A stretch of 64,000 bases of DNA from Pseudogymnoascus verrucosus (lineage: Eukaryota). Position numbers and translations under genes: made by a program. The DNA lies in the NCBI GenBank assembly GCA_001662655.1, contig KV460208.1, one strand, 5' to 3'. The stretch's first letter is position 1. Every line of letters begins with the position of its first letter. The notes under the pieces are model-generated. The model did no database searches and was not told the origin of the DNA. It saw only the letters and a program-made list of their open reading frames with translations. Positions 14,251 through 53,136 of this stretch are shown piece after piece.

Positions 14251-14374
14251 GAAAACACATCAGCCCAGCCCAACCCATCCCACCCTTTCTTCTTCTCCTT
14301 CTCACCCCTAGATATTTAACTTCAGGGGCCAAAATCCAACATCCAAAGCGGCAAAAACAAAATGAGGCAAAAAA

Positions 14375-14493
14375 ACATACAACAGTGGGTATTCGCTGGT
14401 GGTCACCCACCCAACTACTAATCCACCGATCTCAAGCTTGTGTATGGCAGAGCGGACGGGATGCCCAATTCTCTTGAGTCTATGGTCGTATGT
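14375..14493 (-). rRNA. Dispersed 5S rRNA gene, intact, 119 nt
   Basis: The minus strand reads ACATACGACCATAG...CATCCCGTCCGCTCTGCC...AGTAGTTGGGTGGGTGACCACCAGCGAATAC...GTTGTATGT with complementary termini. An oligo-T Pol III terminator follows directly, and TATATA lies ~25-30 nt upstream (14518-14523). Confidence 0.96.
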
Positions 14494-14981: not shown

Positions 14982-15606
14982 CTAATTTCCCCCGCCGCCT
15001 GTATTCTGCCCTCCAGCCTATGGATTGTCAATTCTGATCTACAAAGTGGAATGTGGCTAAACTTACACCAGCCTGATTGGCAATATTTTGCTGCCCCCCA
15101 TCACCAGGTGGTGGGGGAGGAGGGGGGGGGGTATTCCCCTGGTTGCCTCCTCTGTTATTTCCACCCGGGCCGCCATTCTGCCTCTCTACCATATCTCGGC
15201 CCTGATTTCTCTGTGGAGGAGTGGGTGTATTCTGCTGATTGGCACCATTTTGCTGCCCCCCATTACCAGGTGGTGTGTGAGCAGGACGGGGTGTATTCTC
15301 CTGGTTGCCTCCTCTGTTGTTTCCACCCGGGCCGCCATTCTGCCTCTCTACCATATCTCGGCCCTGATTTCTCTGTGGCGATGGAGGAGGAAGAGGTGGT
15401 GTAGGAGGAGTCCCGCCCGTTTCACGATTCTGTCTATTGTTGAGACGCTGATTATTGTTCCGTGGGGGTTGGCCTGGAACTTCTTGGGGTGGTGGAATTG
15501 CTTGAATAGAAAGGTCAAACTTCGTGTTCTGGACAGGAAAACCATTGGCGGTGAAAGCTGTTATGAGGAGGACGACGAGGGAAGCGTGGCTGGCTTGCAG
15601 TTGCAT
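14982..15606 (-). CDS. Small secreted G/N/Q/P-rich repeat protein; intron 15066-15018
   Basis: Hydrophobic signal-peptide-like start (MQLQASHASLVVLLITAFTANG). Two near-identical 162-nt (54-aa) units. A GTAAGT...TAG intron gives a final exon AGGQNTGGGGN*. Confidence 0.75.
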
Positions 15607-17410: not shown

Positions 17411-18421
17411 ATGCACTCATTCACCACCGTCCTGATCACCGCCTCGGCCCTCCTAGCGACAGTTTCCAGTTCTCCCCTCCAACTCCGCAGCACCTGCGGT
17501 GGCGCACCAACCGGCAATGGCAGCCAACAACCCCTTTCCCAACCAAGCGGTATCACCACCGCCAAAGCATGCCAGGCTAATTGCACAGCTAATGCATCTT
17601 GCCAATCCTTCGTCTTCGGCATGGTGAACAATGCAGTCAAATGCATCCTCTACTCCGTCCCAGCGGCTTCAGCCCCTAAGCAATCAAGCAGCAATCTCAT
17701 CGCCTACGATAAGTCATGCGGCTCCGTCCCAGCAGTCGTTCCCACGGCATCCAACCCAACAGGCGCTAAAACAGGTGGGAAACTCGCCATTCGAGCAACC
17801 TGTGGCTCTGCACCAACTGGCCCTACCGGAAACGCCAAACCCCTTTCTCAACCAAGCGACATCACCACCGCCAAAGCATGCCAGGCCAAATGCACCGCTA
17901 ATGCATCTTGCCAGTCCGTCGTCTTCGGCATGGTGAACAATGCAGTCAAATGCATCCTCTACTCCGTCCCAGCGGCTTCAGCCCCTAAGCAATCAAGCAG
18001 CAATCNNNNNNNNNNNNNNNNNNNNNNNNNNNNNNNNNNNNNNNNNNNNNNNNNNNNNNNNNNNNNNNNNNNNNNNNNNNNNNNNNNNNNNNNNNNNNNN
18101 NNNNNNNNNNNNNCACCAACTGGCCCTACCGGAAACACCACACCCATTTCCACGCCAGCAAATATCTCCAGCGCCGCTACATGCAAGACCCAATGCCAAG
18201 CCAACCCCTCTTGCAAATCGTAAGCTCTCTCCCCCTCTCTCCCTATCTCTACAAAACACTAGAATATCAGTGACGAGTATATTATGATTAGGTTTGAATT
18301 CGGCACTCCATCACCGAACGGCAGCCCCACCTGCCGTCTGTTCTCCGTCGCGGCCGCCTCCGTGCCTACATCAACGAGCGGGCAGAGTTTTGTTGTCTAT
18401 GATGTGGGATGCTCTATCTAG
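17411..18421 (+). CDS. Secreted Cys-rich protein with at least 3 tandem PAN/Apple-like modules; spans an assembly gap; intron 18220-18291
   Basis: Signal peptide MHSFTTVLITASALLATVSS. Repeated C..CxxxCxxxxxCxSF..C..YDxxC pattern with a 309-nt period. The final exon ends ...FVVYDVGCSI*. Confidence 0.8.
18006..18113. other. Assembly gap (108 N) inside the repeat gene
   Basis: Run of N characters. Confidence 1.
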
Positions 18422-18913
18422 GCACGAATCACACCACATATAGTTGAGATTGGGGCTCATTAACTTGCTACCTCACTCAGGTCGGGATTCTCTTTTGTTG
18501 GGGCGTAGGATGGTATGCTACTGGGGTGGGAAAGGAGGTTGGTGCATTCAGAGACTCAGTGGGAGGAGTTCGCATTTTTGTTTTGATTTTTGATTTTAGC
18601 AAATATCTGTCGTTACCAATCTAAGAAAACTCGCCAATCTATGGTCTGAGCAGGGAATTAGTCCTCGCGACTTTTTGAATTGTAGTAGATAACTTCACCA
18701 ACCACTTCAAATACAATCATAATAAATTGAAAGAAATTTGAAACCGAACATTTTGAACAAGATGCCGTCTTCCAAATCTTTAAGTTCGCCCTCTGCGCGG
18801 AGGCGTCACGCGCGGCGTGGCCCAACTACCCCGCACCTACCCACCCGTCGCCGATGCGTCTAACAGCCACAAGCGCAGACCGAGTATATTGTGAAAACGT
18901 TACGTCGCCTAAC

Positions 18914-18986
18914 CTCACTCACCCTGCTCACCCCTCGGCTCACCCTGCTCACCCTACTCACCCTCGGTTCACCCTCGGTTCACCCC
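18914..18986. repeat. Short degenerate tandem array of (C/T)TCACCC(T/C)-type units, about 7 copies
   Basis: ctcactcaccctgctcacccctcggctcaccctgctcaccctactcaccctcggttcaccctcggttcacccc. Confidence 0.85.
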
Positions 18987-19053
18987 TTAAGGCGGCAAGG
19001 GGCTTAGATTCCACGCTATGCCTATTAGCACGATTGAGAGTAATAGGCAGGTA

Positions 19054-19119
19054 GATCACAAGCTTATGTATAGTAGAGCGGACGGGATGCCTAGTTCTCT
19101 TAAGTCTGTGGTTGTATGT
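19054..19119 (-). pseudogene. 5' half of a 5S rRNA gene (nt ~1-66), RIP-mutated
   Basis: Ungapped manual alignment to 14428-14493 gives 57/66 identical. Six of the 9 changes are C>T or G>A, mostly creating TpA. Confidence 0.93.
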
Positions 19120-19198
19120 GAAAACTAATATTAAAGAGCAAAGTAAGTAGTACTACTTCCTTAGCATATAAATGAATATTAAGTATTAAAAGGTAAAA

Positions 19199-19261
19199 AC
19201 ATATAATAGTAGATGTTTGCTAGTAGCTACCTACCTAACTACTAATCTACTAATCTTAAGC
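19199..19261 (-). pseudogene. 3' half of a 5S rRNA gene (nt ~57-119), heavily RIP-mutated, retaining its oligo-T terminator
   Basis: Ungapped manual alignment to 14375-14437 gives 47/63 identical. All 16 differences are transitions and 14 are C>T or G>A. The flank aggtaaaaac resembles aggcaaaaaaac at the intact gene. Confidence 0.88.
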
Positions 19262-19508
19262 AAGCACCTAGATAATAGTTGAATTAGTGCTATCTAGCTA
19301 TGTAGGTAAATAACGCTACCCTTACGATTTTGGTTCCCTCACTATCATTAGGTTGTCCTACTAGATATGCCCTAACCTAGAGTAGAGCCAGCTAAATGGA
19401 ACTATGTCCTGCGAGCTACTAAAGCTTTGAATTTCAGCATCAAGCCCTATAGCACTATTACTAGTAGTTTTATTCCTAATATATCATTTAGTTGTCTACA
19501 CTCTAGCT

Positions 19509-22175
19509 TCACTTCCTCGTCCACTTTCCTATCCACTTCCTTACCCACTTCCTTACCCACTTCCGCTCCTTACCCTCGACCCCATTCCAATCAACTACCT
19601 CCCTCGCCCTTCTGACAACTTTCAAATACACAGGGAATAGGCATGCCATCCCTAGAGCAACAGCGACGATCCAGAAACTCCTGCGCACCCCCATCTTGCT
19701 CTGCGATGCGAACAAAACCCATGGTCCCATGGCGCCACCCCCAGTCCCAGCTGCTAGCATCACCGCACCCCTCTTTGTCGCGCGGCCTAGACCACGCAAG
19801 GCGATCGCAAAGATGAGGGGGAATACGGGGCCTTCAAAGAAATATAACCCAACCGTCAGACCCAACACCGTATTAGGGTGGGTTGTAGCGGTGTGTGAGG
19901 GAAGCGCCGCAATAGTTATAGATATGGCCATGCCGCCTAGGAGAGAGGCGCAGAGAAGTTTGCGTGGGCGAATAACGAGGCACAACGCGCCGCACAAAAA
20001 GCGTGACACCGCAAAGACGCTGTGGCCAACCAAGGATATGTTTGGTAGTGTCAAAGAAGGGCTGAAACCCAGATCATGGTCGGCGAAGAGGTCAGAGAAC
20101 CAGAGGTTGACAGTTTCCTGTGCGGCAACATACAGGAACTGTGCAAAGACACCGATGGCAAGCGTTATAGACACGACTCTAAAGGCGCCAATATGCGTCA
20201 ATGTCCTTGGCTCTATGATAACTCTGTTCATAGGCAGAGATCGAGATCGTGTTGCCCTCTGCAACTCTTGGTCAGTCGCTTCCGGAAGCGGCATGTAGTA
20301 AAAGAAGAGACCGAGAATGACCGCGAGGTATGAGATAGCAAGGTATGTCCACTGTACGCCAATTAATGTTGAATGTTCTTTTACACTCGCAAAAAGTACT
20401 TTAGAAAGAAGCTCGCTAACCACGCTTCCGATAGCCTGAACCCCCTGTGCAAGCAGTAGTCGCATCTCACCATATAATGGCGGACCGGCAAGAGCAAGGA
20501 AGGGATTCGCGGCCGTCTCGAGAACGGAGAGACCGAAGCCTACGACGAAAGTAGATATGACGAAACCAGGGAAGGAAACGAGAACCGCAGAGGGCCAGAA
20601 CATGAGAGTTCCAACGCCATACACACAGAGCCCCGCAATGAATGTCACCTTAAACCCCCCCCTTGTTAACGCATACCATCCTAATGATAAGGGTCCGAAT
20701 ATATACCCGCCCCAATATGCTGATAGTAAGCCTATGCCTTGCGATACAGCAGAATGCGAAATTGCCACTATCTGTGAGTTCAAGTGGTTGAGAAGGCCGT
20801 ATGAGAAACCCCATAAGAAGAAGAGGATCGTAACAGCAGTGCAGTACCTCCACGAGTCCTCCGAGGAAAGATCTGCCAAACATTTCGGGCGCCGGATATT
20901 AACAAAACCGAAGTAGACGCTACCGGAACTAGAAGCACTCGATTCTTGTCTGGCCCGCATATTAGTTGCCGTGGTTGGTATAGTGATAAACTCTATATCG
21001 TCGGCTTCAACCTGTCGCCTTGCTTTAGCCGCGATCGGAGCTGTTGCCACGATATTCGCAGGTGGTATTTTTCCTTGCAATGTCGATTCCGGAGATGGAT
21101 TGCTACCGTCCGTATTATCAACTTTTGCAACAGATGCAGTGGGTGTCTCGTGAGAAGAATGGTGGCGAGTCGGCTCAAGCAAAATCGGAAGAATCCTCTT
21201 TACTATCGGCTTCAATGTTGGGATGCACGCACACACAATACCAATATTGACTTCGACCGCTGTCCACATTAAAGAATATGACACGATAAACGCGTAATCT
21301 TTCTCATCTCCTAGCCCAATCGTTGAAGTTGGTGACGCGGTCAAAGACGAGACGTCTATCATGGCCTGTTGCAAAAAATAAACCCGAATCACATCCACAA
21401 TCATTACAAATATTCCCAAGGCGAATGTAAACACCAATATATTCTTTTGCCTCCGAGGCATATGTATTCCAGTAAGCATAGGTATCGGAAGTACCAGGAT
21501 AATAACATCGGTAACGATTGTAATCGGTGTGGAGGTAAGATATAGCGTGATGATCGGAATGCATTTTGCTAGATCATTATGCACGTTGAAGGTCTTACTG
21601 ACCGGTCGACACTGGAATATATAGAGGAGTGTCAAGACCAAACCCCCCGCGTTGACTAGCACAAGCGCTGCATATGAAATAATTCGAAAAAGTTTATTCG
21701 TAACCCTCGATAGTCGCAAGTAAAAGACTAAGAGGCTTGACTTCGTCGCTACAAGAGCTGGATTCTAGTAAGTATTAGCTGTAGCTCGCTTTATATTGCC
21801 TAGTCCATCCTTTCATTTTCCTCCTAACCTAAGACCTTTTGTGGATATACGCACATAAAGCACACTAAATGCATATATGCATTTCTTTAATGGCAGCACC
21901 CACTCGTCCTTGATTCTTGCATCTGGCTTTCCTAACCCTTTTCCCGTCGCAAATACAACCACGACACTAGCCCCCAACGATAGTATCCAGCCGATAACAA
22001 TTAGATAATCGTCGAATGTTATATGCTTGACGATAACTGCACGGCTTATCAGTCGTCCAGCTATTAACACCGTCGCGACGGAAACCGTGACAATAGTCAC
22101 GATTAATATCGTGGTGTTGCGGTCCGAAAGATTTATGTCGTTGGGCGAGGAAGAATGGGGGGATTCAACCGCCAT
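19509..22175 (-). CDS. Fusion of a PTH11-like (fungal rhodopsin-like) 7TM domain with a FucP/glucose-galactose-type MFS permease; intron 21854-21765
   Basis: N-terminal part: RLISR..DDYLI, ATKSSLLVFYLRL, FQCRPV, TDVIILVLPIP, WTAVEVNIGIVCACIPTLKP. C-terminal part: LFFLWGFSYGL, GLSVLETAANPF, FLYVAAQE, FEGPVFPLIFAIALRGLG. Both lie in a single reading frame. Confidence 0.9.
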
Positions 22176-30575: not shown

Positions 30576-31671
30576 ATGGTAAGTTCATCAACACCGTTCA
30601 GCATAGCATGCTTGAACGAGAATTCCGTGGATCTCGAGGATCTACGTTGAATGGGTCCATGCAAGATGCTTCGGATGAGATCTGAAGCGCAAATTGCTGA
30701 CTCTGGTTTTCTTCACAGCCTTTCACCAAGCTGGTTAAGAACTCCGCGTACTACAGGTAAGAATCAAGTCCTCTCTCAGTTTCGAAACAATCGCATTGCT
30801 AACCTCAAATAGTCGCTTCCAGACTAAGTACAAGCGCCGTCGTTCCGGAAAGACCGATTACTACGCTCGCAAGCGCCTCATCACCCAGGCCAAGAACAAG
30901 TACAATGCGCCTAAATACCGCCTTGTGGTTCGCTTCACCAACCGCGACATCGTGATGCAGATCGTCACCTCCGAGATCTCCGGAGACAAGGTCTTCTGCG
31001 CCGCCTACTCGCACGAGCTGAAGGCCTACGGTCTTGAGCACGGTCTTACCAACTGGGCCGCCGCCTACTGCACTGGTCTTCTGATCGCCCGCCGTGTCCT
31101 CAAGAAGCTCGGCATGGACGCCGACTTCCAGGGTGTTGAGGAGGCTGACGGAGAGTTCACCCTCACCGAGGCCGCTGAGGATGAGGACGCCCGCCGCCCA
31201 TTCAAGGCCTTCCTTGATGTTGGTCTTGCCCGCACCTCCACTGGTGCCCGCATCTTCGGTGCCATGAAGGGTGCCTCCGATGGTGGCATTCTCGTGCCCC
31301 ACTCCGAGAACCGCTTCCCCGGTTTCGACATGGAGTCCAAGGAGCTCGACTCCGAGACCCTCCGCAAGTACATCTTCGGTGGACACGTCGCTGAGTACAT
31401 GGAGACCCTCGCCGATGACGATGAGGAGCGCTACAAGTCCCAGTTCCAGGGTTACATCGATGATGAGATAGAGGCCGATGGACTTGAGGAGCTCTACCAG
31501 GATATCCACAAGCAGATCCGTGAGGACCCATTCAAGAAGGTCGAAGGTGCCGCCGAGAAGAAGGACAAGGAGGAGTACAAGAAGGAGTCCCTCAAGTACA
31601 AGGGCCGCAAGCTCACAAAGGAGGAGAAGGTCGAGCGCGTCAAGGCCAAGATCGCCGAGCTCAGAGAGTAA
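30576..31671 (+). CDS. RPL5: 60S ribosomal protein L5 (uL18); exons 30576-30578, 30719-30756, 30813-31671
   Basis: [57 protein letters not shown]; strong codon bias. Confidence 0.98.
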
Positions 31672-33114: not shown

Positions 33115-33203
33115 TGCCCATTCTCGGAATCGAACCGAGGATCTTCTCATATCGGACACATTCGGTTTACGAGTGAGACGCTGTACCACTAAGCCAAACG
33201 GGC
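33115..33203 (-). tRNA. tRNA-Thr(CGT) with a ~17-nt intron
   Basis: GCCCGTT acceptor stem pairs with AATGGGC; D arm TGGCTTAGTGGTACAGC; anticodon arm TCTCA-CT-CGT-A[intron]A-TGAGA; T arm CTCGG-TTCGATT-CCGAG; downstream T runs. Confidence 0.94.
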
Positions 33204-49352: not shown

Positions 49353-49604
49353 AATTGTTATGTTGAATGGACATGTTAGAATGAATGGGTTTGCTGGAGG
49401 AGTTGAGGGACTGGGAGTGGGTTTATGCGTAATCAATACCAAATGTTAATGCTTGATGAGAACTACGCAACCACATGGAATATCTGTATTGCAAATGGAG
49501 TACTGTAAGGATCTTAACGCGAACAGCTCGAAAAATGGTTACTTGCCTGTCCGAGACAGACTTGGAAACATGGTAACGACGATCCAATACGTTGATCTAA
49601 GAAT

Positions 49605-52600
49605 TTAAGTAATAGAAGAGAGCAGCTTTGCTACTGCGTCGTTCCCACTCCGTGTAGCCCATAAGAGCGGCGTATGGCCATCAATGTCTTTAGACTCTAG
49701 CTTAGCGCCCTTGTCAAGCAGAAGCCTCACTACTGCCTCATTCCCATACTCTGCAGCGAACGAGAGCGATGTCCGGCCACTGTCAGTTGTAGACTCTAGT
49801 TTGGCGTCCTTGTTAAGCAGCAGCTTCACTACTGCTTCGCGCCCAGTCCGTGTAGCCCATAAGAGCGGCGTGTAGCCATGAATGTCTGTAGACTCTAGCT
49901 TAGCGCCCTTGTCAAGCAGAAGCCTCACTACTGCCTCACGCCCATCCTCAGCAGCGTACGAGAGCGATGTCCGGCCACGGTCAGTTGTAGACTCTAGCTT
50001 GGCGCCCTTGTTAAGCAGTAGCTTCACTACTGCCTCACGCCCATACATTGAAGCCCACATGAGTGGCGTCAGGTTACTGTTACGTGTAGACTCTAGCTTG
50101 GCACCCTTGTCAAGCAGAAGCCTCACTACTGCCTCATGCCCATTCCGTGCGGCCCCTGAGAGCGCAGTCCGGTCATCGTCTGACCTAGACTCTATCCGAG
50201 CATCCTTATTAAGCAGCAGCTCCACTACTGCTTCATGCCCATTCTCTGCAGCCCACGAGAGCGGCGTTCGGCCAATGTTAGACTCAAACTCTAGGTTGGC
50301 ACCCTTGTTTAGTAGGAGCTTCACTACTTCTATGTGCCCATTTTGTGCGGCCCATAGGAGCGGCCTGTAGCCGCCGGAGTCCTCAGACTCTAGATTTGCG
50401 CCCTCATCAAGTAATAGTGCCACCACGGCAATGTGTCCATTTCCTGCAGCCCATGAGAGTGGCGTCCGCTCACCTCCGTCTTCGGCCTCTAGCTTAGCAC
50501 CTTTGTCAAGCAGCAGCTTCACTATTTCCTCATGCCCATTCTCTGCAGCAAACGACAGCGGCGTCTGTCCCACTCTGTCCTTTGAGTTGGTGTCGACAAT
50601 GTCAGAGTCGAGCAGCAACTTGAGGACGGCCTCTTGCCCATTCTCTGCAGCCCAAGAGAGCGGCGTCCGTCCCACTCCATTTTTTAAGTCTGCGTCGACA
50701 CTGCCGGAGTCGAGCAACAACTTTAATAGAGCCTCATGCCCGTCCCGCGCGGCTAGTGACAGTGGAGTCCAGTCATCTTTATCTGTTGCATTCATGTTTA
50801 TTGCATTGCCTTTACATAGCCTGCGCAGCAGGTCGTATATAATCGGCTCTTTCTCTGAAATGAAAAAGATATGCGGCAACCAATAGAGCTTTGCATAAGA
50901 GTAAAAAGGAAATTCATCCATCGGCTGAGAACGGAAAAGCTTGGTTGTTTCCGCAAGAGTCTTTCCAATGTCAAAGCCAGGTTTCTTCTTAGAATTTAAG
51001 AGCTTTAATGTGAGACTTTTAACGATGCTTGGTAAGTCGGGCGCTGAACGTATAATTTGGGACGGTGCTGATGCAGTCATTATTTGGGGGACTACCGTAG
51101 TAGATACCTGGGTTGAAAAAACGCCGTAATTGAGGTATGTAACAATGATACTTGCCATTGCCCTGTTTGCGCTATCGACTGTGATTTTTCTGTTAGCTGA
51201 GTCTTCAAACCCACTCAGAAGGAATTGCTTGACGCTATGGTGCACGAGCCGTATAGTTCTCTCCTCTTCATCAATAGTAAGGAGGCCCCCGCAGCAGGTT
51301 AATATAAAATTCACGTCATTGAGACGCCTTGACCAGTTCCAGACAGGATCACCAGGGTCTACACTCAAGGCGTCTCTAAGTTCTTCCGCTGTTAAGGGAC
51401 GGCGAGCTATAGTTACAAGCTCTAATATCCGTCTTTGATAAGCCTTTCCAGATCCTTCTGATTTCCGCAAAATACGAGAAAACGTTTCTGAAAGATCCTT
51501 AGGAAGGTTTATTAGAGCCTGGCGAATGGCATCATCTGTTTTCATGTCGCACAAGGATATGATTTGCAGAGCTACCCAGAGAAACATTCCGTGGGATCGT
51601 TCAAGGAGAAAGTCTCGTATTTCCAGTATAAGCGAGGGATCTCCTATCACCAATCGGTTGGACTCTATGTGGCTCTCTAGTTCTGCTGATATGAACGAAG
51701 TAATATCGGGGTTATCACTGGGAATTGATATGACCTGGGCGGCAATGAACCGTTCTAGGCTGAGTTTCAAAACATTGCCGGGATCGAGTCTAACTGATAG
51801 ACATAAAACCAGTGGAAATATCCCCTGGAGCTTGCGGAGTTGTAGAACCAATATTTCTCTTTCGGCAGAGTCACACTCATCTAACCCGTCAAGGACGAAG
51901 TATGCTCTAGAATTCGGTGCAATGGCGCGTTGGAGTAAACTGAACATCATTTCGAAATCTAGAGCAAAAGTAGCAGTCCTGTCGATGAATCCCGCCACCG
52001 TTGCGAGATCTGCTATCGGGCGTAGCAGTTGTCGGGCCAGAGAACCAATGACTGTCCGCGCTTTCAGACTTTCTAGAATGTCGTACCGGCAAAAGAAGTA
52101 CGAAACCGTAATATTCTTATTTCGACTATCAAGATGTAGATCGTCAATTAGGTTGGCTAGCAAAACGGATTTTCCGGATCCTAGCCCACCTGTATATATA
52201 AGTGTACAGGAGGTATCTTGTCCTTTCCAGTCCTTGTATTCGTCAATTAGGTTGAATAGAGTTGTATTTCCAATCTTTCGAGTCTGCTTCCAAGTCGTCT
52301 CGTAATCATATGTAGAGCAGGAATCGAGGATCCGTAAGCTTGCCTTCAACTTTTGCTCGCGTGATATAGATTTAGAGATCTTGTTAGAAAAAGCTCTAAA
52401 TATAGAGTTGTCTTGGGCTTCCCCCTCAATCGTTTTAGCCATCAGAAGGCTCATTTCCTCTTTAATCGCATTCGCCCAATGGCCAAGTTCTGACTGGTAT
52501 GTTTTCGTGTCTAAATCACTTAGACTAGATGCAAATTGCCCCAAGGCAGACTTCTGCGTGAACTTTAACAATCGATGGCAAAGATTAACCACTACAACGA

Positions 52601-53136
52601 AATATTCAGGCAGGTATGACTGTAGATTCTTTGACTGGGGGTATAGCAAGGCTATCATTTGGTAACGGGGAGCCGATTGACCGGCAGTCATAAGAAGAGT
52701 CGATAGCTTTTCTAGATAGGAAGAGAAGTTTGCAATTAACTACGAATATGTCAGTAGAACGTAGCTAAGGGGCTCAAGGGATACTGACAAGCAATGACAT
52801 TCGCACCAACGACCAGACACTGCATGCTATTATATTCTGGGACCCGCCTAGTATGATATCACCAAGCGCAGCAAATTGTTGAACGGCTTGCAGGAAATTG
52901 GTCATCCGCGGCCCAAAACAACGCCCGCGGCTACTCTTATTAGAAGCGCAATAGTCAACCTCGGCCGTGAGTCGCATGACATCGCTAGGACCTGGAGGGG
53001 AATTTTGCCATTGAGATCTGTAGTTACGAAACGCAACTTTCTGTTCACTCGAGAGGTCCGCTTCAAACTGCGAAACGGCTTGCGCTAGACGAAGTTCGGG
53101 CTTCAGTCGTGAAGCATTTGATAATATGATAGACAT
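49605..53136 (-). CDS. NACHT-NTPase plus ankyrin-repeat protein (fungal NLR-like); intron 52788-52740
   Basis: P-loop GGLGSGKS, YFFC, Walker B FVLDGLDEC, GMFLWV and winged-helix RLVHHSVKQFL, followed by 12 ankyrin repeats. Confidence 0.93.
49620..50770 (-). repeat. Ankyrin repeat array, 12 units, 99-nt period over the C-terminal units
   Basis: gactcta recurs at 49693, 49792, 49891, 49990, 50089 and 50188. Confidence 0.92.

Follow-up and report, generated by a model that had tools for sequence, protein, structure and literature searches.

The two pieces of a 5S rRNA gene that lie in swapped order at 19054–19261 of the 64-kb stretch of DNA analysed here (called the window in the following) are probably the remnant of a resident 5S gene which is followed by one copy of a dispersed repeat with a 5S-derived head, the whole patch having been mutated by repeat-induced point mutation (RIP). 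The original prediction, which was made from the letters of the window, agrees with our analysis in the description of the two pieces and of their mutations. Nevertheless, we come to a different conclusion concerning how the arrangement arose. It had been proposed that a 5S-targeting mobile element, for which Starships were given as the known case, left its footprint here by site-specific integration. On the contrary, we suggest that one of the two breaks belongs to a repeat family and was already present when the copy arrived.

The two 5S halves

The window contains one intact 5S rRNA gene, which was recognized by the full Rfam model and served as the reference. Both halves were missed by the Rfam search, even with E-values up to 10. 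By alignment with MAFFT the stretch 19054–19119 corresponds to nt 1–66 and the stretch 19199–19261 to nt 57–119 of the gene, in both cases without a gap. In BLAST searches within the window the first half, in the following fragment A, is 86.4% identical to the intact gene over 66 nt (E 4e-17) and the second, fragment B, is 75.0% identical over 64 nt (E 1.6e-9), whereas the intact gene had no further match at E < 0.5 in the 64 kb. The Rfam matches to snoR79, two hairpin ribozymes and Six3os1 between 10000 and 30000 (E 1.8–7.8) are far below the gathering scores and were taken as chance. The features of the region are as follows.

14374..14493, minus strand: intact 5S rRNA gene, reference (Rfam RF00001, 74.2 bits, full model, 1-120)
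18890..18898, minus strand: 3' copy of an exact 9-nt direct repeat, directly after the 3' motif of the unit
18894..19119, minus strand: whole SINE3-like unit (nhmmer profile, alignment, multicopy depth)
~18912-18990, minus strand: GGGTGAG-type repeats of the unit
~18990-19035, minus strand: conserved block of the unit
19036-19053, minus strand: linker of the unit, ~18 nt
19054..19119, minus strand: fragment A, 5S nt 1-66, forming the 5S-derived head of the unit (alignment, BLAST, profile)
19117..19125, minus strand: 5' copy of the exact 9-nt direct repeat, candidate target-site duplication
19120..19198, minus strand: AT-rich spacer of 79 nt between the halves, near single-copy depth in run X1
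19195-19198, minus strand: T-run terminator 3' of fragment B
19199..19261, minus strand: fragment B, 5S nt 57-119, heavily RIP-mutated (ungapped alignment, BLAST)
19262..19500, no strand assigned: flank R, AT-rich and RIP-like, in place of 5S nt 1-56 (contig comparison, composition)

Read on the minus strand, that is in the sense of the 5S gene, the order is 3' half with its T-run, the rest of the 79-nt spacer, and then the 5' half. The likeness to the gene ends at the outward edge of each half, and nt 57–66 are common to both. Thus, the alignments bear out that two ungapped 5S halves lie in swapped order 79 nt apart and that their broken ends overlap by about 10 nt, the overlap being nt 57–66. 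That both breaks fall within nt 57–66 is true for this copy; the end at nt 66, on the other hand, is partly due to the copy's own linker variant. In less mutated copies of the 5' piece, which are described below, the 5S likeness extends to nt 61 (locus L005) or, with a diverged stretch, to nt 74 (locus L002).

A dispersed repeat with a 5S-derived head

A metagenome collection was scanned with a pattern of the junction between the block and the 5S head, in which the gene upstream of the head had no part. Five loci were obtained. Two of them (L003 and L004) have no 5S sequence or block nearby; they were considered chance matches and left out of all counts. The other three (L001, L002 and L005) contain the unit in unrelated flanks. 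The block pattern had 0 matches in each of the collections genome_contigs and viral_contigs. When a profile was built from the three outside loci only, the window copy being left out, nhmmer matched positions 1–204 of the profile to the window from 19119 to 18894 with an E-value of 8.5e-48. All four copies align from the head into the repeats, and the window copy is accordingly a member of the same family.

The unit has a length of ~220 nt and is composed of the 5S head, an 18-nt linker, a block of ~70 nt, a set of GGGTGAG-type repeats and, at the end, a short 3' motif. The block is conserved in 4/4 aligned copies, and the linker has a constant length (18 nt) and a variable sequence. The heads of L001 and L002 match the 5S gene, whereas the head of L005 spans nt 43–61 only, this copy being truncated at the 5' end by the first 42 bases of the head. 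As the block flanking the 5' half is conserved across a multicopy family, the break of the 5' half is, to judge from these alignments, the boundary between head and body of the family, which appears to have been inherited and not made locally. The claim of two independent breaks was therefore not upheld: the boundary is found family-wide, on many contigs and in other fungi.

The block also bears on a simpler explanation, namely that a tandem pair of 5S genes suffered two unrelated deletions and RIP, with the breakpoints close to each other by chance. By our own estimate two breaks within ~10 nt of each other in a gene of 119 nt are to be expected in about 1 of 10 cases, and RIP-mutated tandem duplications with a 5S gene are known from the zeta-eta region of Neurospora. 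Against this explanation, the sequence beside the 5' half is the conserved multicopy block that matches the profile with the E-value given above, so that this break is inherited. We consider plain decay of both copies improbable. For the break of fragment B alone it is possible.

In the window copy, 8 nt of the linker pair perfectly as an inverted repeat with 8 nt of the block, the two arms being 13 nt apart (19020–19048). The linkers of the other copies have the same length and a different sequence, and since the change includes transversions it is not the result of RIP; it may be a hairpin-templated conversion.

Copies in the source genome and in close relatives

The region 18400–20200 was compared with the contigs of four sequencing runs, of which X1 is the likely source and X2, X3 and X4 are three close relatives with ~98–99% identity to the window (own estimate from shared words). 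Approximately the stretch 18935–19121 is covered by many other contigs, whereas the flanks and the spacer are at single-copy depth. At position 19027, within the block, the majority letter is found in 27, 21, 23 and 14 distinct contigs of X1, X2, X3 and X4, respectively, so that each run has the unit on at least 14–27 contigs. In X1 the summed depth at this position is 19868 compared with ~205 in the flank (~95x), a ratio of summed depths which is not to be equated with the copy number. In contrast, the depth of the spacer in X1 is 224.6, against a flank baseline of 204–209. Because many contigs cover the 5' half and its left neighbour while the flanks are single-copy, these two together are a dispersed repeat, and its multicopy status is directly observed in all four runs.

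X3 and X4 each have one contig that extends from the block across the 5' half and spacer as far as the 3' half (19013/19014–19257), with four differences each. The closest relative, X2, departs from this arrangement: its spacer is uncovered at 19132–19192, and one contig of single-copy depth joins 19039 to 19195 and carries 32 other letters in between. Most simply, this contig is an allele without the head and most of the spacer, a reading which rests on the one joining contig and not on missing cover. The arrangement is hence shared by two of the three relatives, and the third differs by ~125 nt, which is not the size of an element. The contigs of all four runs extend through the right flank. 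The orthologous interval had been recommended as the place to look for empty sites; in the region compared, the four runs had no large insertion and no empty site.

The Starship reading

These comparisons speak directly to the reading that two tandem 5S genes were split alike by a Starship with a DUF3435 recombinase, or that the region is the junction of two such elements. The underlying premise is sound, as it is in print that some Starships insert into 5S genes (PMC9156397, PMC11162782). According to these papers, such elements interrupt dispersed 5S genes of fungi at one fixed position inside the gene and generate short 5S-derived direct repeats, which is the likeness to the present case; elements from the families Enterprise, Arwing and Voyager carry direct repeats of 6–16 bp matching 5S motifs, and the 10-nt overlap of our two halves resembles a direct repeat of the integration type. 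In fact, the overlap occurs here in permuted order and at the family-wide boundary. Moreover, Starships have a length of 27–700 kb, possess a tyrosine-recombinase captain and are present in few copies (PMC9156397, PMC11162782), whereas neither a captain nor cargo nor a large insertion was found here.

The window has 21 open reading frames of at least 200 aa, 15 of which were scanned with Pfam; the other 6 are 5 antisense overlaps and a sugar transporter, which was checked separately and which a protein atlas placed only in Ascomycota. The scanned frames belong to ordinary genes, with the products ATG1 kinase, a calpain, ribosomal protein L5, a malic enzyme, an amino-acid permease, MCM2, a NACHT-ankyrin protein, a GTP cyclohydrolase II, a phosphomannose isomerase, an actin-like protein, a PAN-domain protein and a Fung_rhodopsin/MFS protein. 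A DUF3435 gene had been expected beside the split, and none is among the 15 scanned frames, nor is any other recombinase, a transposase or a reverse transcriptase. The repeated parts reach only ~170 and ~240 nt to either side and are then followed by ordinary single-copy genes. Furthermore, what would be the left end of the element is found on tens of contigs per genome, far above the number of giant elements; for comparison, Voyager has 0–4 copies per isolate, and it inserts at a distance of 20 bp from the 5' end of the 5S gene and not at nt 57–66 (PMC9156397, PMC11162782). Finally, the halves are only 79 nt apart, and the four runs are devoid of a large insertion or deletion at this place. 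Thus, with no recombinase among the scanned frames and neither a large insertion nor an empty site among the four runs, the footprint of a Starship-type element is extremely improbable.

Position of the repeat behind 5S genes

The swapped order of the halves probably results from the place of the repeat, whose head sits just downstream of a 5S gene where the upstream side is visible. A complete 5S gene is found upstream of the head and on the same strand at a distance of 85 nt in L001 (71.1 bits) and of 48 nt in L005 (75.5 bits). The order gene, then repeat is hence present in 2/2 outside loci with a visible upstream side; L002 ends at the contig edge. The spacers of these loci have different lengths and no alignment between them is possible; the flanks likewise have nothing further in common. 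Including the window, 3/3 visible copies are situated 48–85 nt downstream of a 5S gene or of its remnant. By our own estimate, the zone within 100 nt behind all 5S genes makes up well under a thousandth of a 33-Mb genome, and because this zone is so small the link of the copies to 5S genes is not due to chance. Applied to the window, the best reading of the succession of 3' half, spacer and 5' half is that of a putative 5S gene followed by the repeat, and most simply fragment B is the remnant of this resident upstream gene. No repeat unit was detected with nhmmer behind the intact 5S gene at 14374–14493.

A short and fairly fixed distance from polymerase III genes is reminiscent of the TRE elements of Dictyostelium and of Ty3 of yeast, which are retroelements homing to RNA polymerase III genes. 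In contrast to these elements no element-encoded protein is known for the 5S-headed family, and the targeting is here putative. A picture like that of targeting could also arise through co-duplication or if the repeat preferred the T-rich DNA that follows 5S genes. It is at present a rather speculative idea that either the family homes to the T-rich stretch behind 5S genes, as a polymerase III-targeting retroposon of filamentous fungi would, or an insertion at AAGCTT took place of which both junctions survived (see below). If either were true, much of the excess of 3'-truncated 5S pseudogenes that has long been known from filamentous ascomycetes would consist of copies of a single element and not of decayed genes. 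The spacing of 48–85 nt behind a 5S gene in all visible copies is possibly a new observation.

The 5S genes of the window and of the two outside loci (L001 3184–3303, L005 3099–3218) are also alike in the first ~10 bases after the T-run. The common start has the form G/A-Y-C-T, then a T-rich stretch follows, although the loci are unrelated; it seems that a short 3' flank travels with the 5S genes in this group.

Element type

The window unit, 221 nt in this respect, is bracketed by the exact 9-nt direct repeat at 19117–19125 and 18890–18898, for which we estimate that ~0.01 matches would be expected in the space searched, and L005 has an exact 7-nt repeat at the corresponding places. Flanking direct repeats are clear in these 2/4 copies, whereas L001 has at most 5 nt and L002 none. 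The direct repeats of 9 and 7 nt together with the truncation of L005 favour retroposition. Conversely, a TATA-like box precedes the head of L001 by ~29 nt, the distance typical of real 5S genes, which fits a DNA-level copy better than a retrocopy. Besides box A, the internal promoter of 5S genes (type 1 of polymerase III) comprises an intermediate element and box C, which would fall beyond nt 66; with a 5S likeness ending at nt 61–74 only the box A region can be present in the heads. We infer from the SINE3-type build that the repeat probably spread by retroposition.

The closest counterpart in the literature is AfuSINE3 of Aspergillus fumigatus, a 5S-derived SINE which is related to SINE3-1_AO of A. 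oryzae in Repbase. In AfuSINE3 positions 1–64 of the 5S gene are well preserved and are followed by an unrelated body, the length of the elements is 259–343 bp, and the printed sequences show repeats of the GGGTGAG type (PMC5063351). The unit in the window agrees in the 5S head of 60-odd bases, the unrelated body, the GGGTGAG-type repeats and the length of a few hundred bases. Likewise, short flanking duplications are marked in the table of that paper, the promoter boxes are poorly conserved, and the copies are dispersed in gene-rich regions, as is the unit here (PMC5063351). The bodies were compared by eye only, with a short resemblance before the first GGGTGAG. On the other hand, AfuSINE3 has ~5 copies in A. 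fumigatus, whereas the block is found on tens of contigs per genome here, and the sections of the paper on this element make no mention of copies just behind complete 5S genes (PMC5063351). Altogether, the best reading is that the repeat would be a member of a 5S-headed SINE3-like family and thus of a known kind of element.

The same build may have been met even earlier. In 1988 Borsuk et al. reportedly described 5S pseudogenes from A. nidulans which are truncated and carry a conserved 3' sequence that resembles the mouse immunoglobulin switch region. These pseudogenes reportedly resemble the unit in the 5' half of the 5S gene, in the conserved block and in the G-rich repeats of the GGGTGAG kind.

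[quoted passage not shown] Here at least one class of them is a repeat family of its own with a fixed boundary between head and body, and for this reason a common internal 5S breakpoint should not be read as the footprint of an integrase. For Starship surveys and annotation this means that a split 5S match should first be compared with 5S-headed repeats and only then be called an insertion site.

Proposed course of events and the junction of the 3' half

We suggest that a 5S gene was once located between the PAN-domain gene and the Fung_rhodopsin/MFS gene and that a copy of the ~220-nt dispersed repeat would have landed ~75 nt downstream of it. The resident gene would later have lost nt 1–56 at the junction with the AT-rich flank R, and the whole patch, with both parts belonging to repeated families, would then have been mutated by RIP. 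The order of these steps and the route of the loss of nt 1–56 are what we infer. Two facts are not accounted for by this course of events: fragment B starts, at nt 57, only a few bases from the end of the head, and the start of R has an inverted match to the linker of other copies.

The junction between fragment B and R is itself a small, low-copy family. It is found in other contigs of all four runs, and record 22 of X3 spans 19219–19298. A few other contigs also carry the first 40–50 nt of R together with fragment B, and 2–5 contigs have other letters at 19264, 19267 and 19281; further within R, the stretch 19357–19456 has one paralog on the other strand. When the letters of the other copies at 19264 and 19267 are used, the first 17 nt of R match the common linker in inverted orientation at 14/17 positions, and the 32 letters of the X2 contig contain a 12/12 inverted match to 19266–19277. 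The window's own linker matches R in inverted orientation at only 8 of 13–14 positions. All these inverted-repeat counts were made by eye and after many comparisons. The claim of a common break site may thus hold in part: the break of the 5' half is family-wide, but the break at nt 56/57 lies a few bases from the family boundary and the two junctions are inverted repeats of each other.

Several identities of R were tried and rejected. As a second copy of the block it aligned on either strand no better than shuffled sequences, and nhmmer found nothing; in a scan that was lenient to transitions R came low in the top ten for one of 4 queries, and an unrelated coding region scored higher. As an inverted 3' half of the 5S gene it reached a z-value of 2.0, with 53 of 1000 shuffles as good.

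These features of the junction can be combined in another explanation. One or more old insertions of a short element, X, at AAGCTT (nt 55–61) of a 5S gene would have given rise to both types of junction, X being today's linker, block and repeats. The left junction (5S 1–61 and X) would have acquired the promoter region of the 5S gene and multiplied as the 5S-headed repeat, whereas the right junction (the other end of X and 5S 57–119) would have been kept in few copies, including fragment B with R. In this form the site specificity of the original prediction would be retained, with a small element in place of the Starship. This explanation stays alive because the breakpoints overlap at the AAGCTT palindrome, by nt 57–66 here and by nt 57–61 against most other copies, and because of the inverted match of the start of R to the linker beside the head (14/17, and 12/12 with the letters of X2). 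It is also in line with the recurrence of the junction in all four runs. In addition, Starships are reported to have evolved at least five different target sites within the 5S gene, so that the gene is a proven target (PMC9156397, PMC11162782).

On the other side, in the outside loci L001, L002 and L005 the ~3 kb that follow the block contain neither a 3' half of the 5S gene nor the block in inverted orientation, and host genes come close behind the repeat; in L005 a histidine-kinase gene starts ~1.2 kb beyond it. Past its first 17 nt R resembles the block no better than shuffled controls on either strand, and the low count for the window copy and the many comparisons behind the counts weaken the inverted match itself. 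The truncated head of L005 and the 9-nt bracket in the window also fit better to retroposition. We therefore regard an insertion at AAGCTT as unlikely and prefer a resident 5S gene with a retroposed copy behind it. The occurrence of family copies just behind 5S genes and the inverted junction motif are worth following.

Repeat-induced point mutation

The patch 19000–19500 is AT-rich and bears the signature of RIP. The ratio TA/AT is 1.72 in the patch and 0.75 in the whole window, and the ratio (CA+TG)/(AC+GT) is 0.75 compared with 1.21. Of 25 differences between the two fragments and the intact 5S gene 20 are G:C to A:T changes, and 15 of these 20 are at CpA. The 3' half and its right flank carry a heavier load than the 5' half. 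There are 9 differences in fragment A, with 6/9 from G:C to A:T and 5/6 at CpA, and fragment B has 16, with 14/16 from G:C to A:T and 10/14 at CpA. Thus, both the bias of the changes and the composition indices agree with the original prediction that the halves are RIP-mutated.

It had also been supposed that the mutations occurred while the halves were within a larger duplicated unit, and this is what we find. The head with the block on the one hand and fragment B with the start of R on the other are each present on several other contigs, so that the mutated DNA is repeated in the genome. RIP could reach the halves because both belong to repeated units that exceed a single 5S gene in size. 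In Neurospora the zeta-eta region is a classical example of RIP in a tandem duplication with a 5S gene and of its spread into the adjoining DNA, and there as here a duplicated patch with 5S sequence has been made AT-rich by CpA-biased G:C to A:T changes. In our case the repeated units differ in that they are members of families dispersed in the genome, and the suggested second repeat tail at 19484–19600 is a weak sign of a local tandem duplication.

This tail would consist of short G-rich repeats where the patch ends on the right:

19510..19600, minus strand: short repeats, G-rich when read in 5S sense, which overlap with the end of the Fung_rhodopsin/MFS frame

They are possibly a second, degraded repeat tail. 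In a transition-neutral scan of 2552 tiles the tail at 19484–19600 gave the best non-self match (58) and a tile behind the intact 5S gene at 14374 the second best (52), with small margins over the following scores of 50 and 46. By strict alignment neither this second tail nor a truncated repeat behind 14374 is significant, and nhmmer found neither of them. We consider both as weak hints.

Neighbouring genes

The Fung_rhodopsin/MFS frame (19509–21719, minus strand) runs into the G-rich repeats at 19509–19600 with a tail of the KW/VRK type, and the true end of this gene may have been altered by the adjoining repeats. On the other side of the patch the PAN-domain gene consists of tandem repeats of ~309 nt (17502–18219) and is interrupted by a run of 108 N at 18006–18113, which is the cause of the low GC content at 17900–18200. 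Closer to the intact 5S gene, a proline- and glycine-rich open reading frame has a tandem duplication of 162 nt with 92% identity (15073–15378); the two Rfam matches to the hairpin ribozyme (E 5–8) fall in its two copies and were for this reason taken as chance.

The gene of ribosomal protein L5 (uL18) is located at 30796–31671, 11–16 kb from the 5S gene and the relics. This protein binds 5S rRNA, and the closeness of the two is probably a coincidence. A tRNA gene at 33115–33203 on the minus strand (Rfam tRNA, 55.8 bits) has an insertion of 19 nt after the position of the anticodon loop, which is presumably an intron. Finally, 9–12 head-to-tail units of 99 nt (33 aa) that are 60–84% alike are found at 49493–50777. 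They lie in the gene of a NACHT/NPHP3_N protein with many ankyrin repeats (49605–52691, minus strand), which is a repeat-rich type of fungal NLR-like gene.
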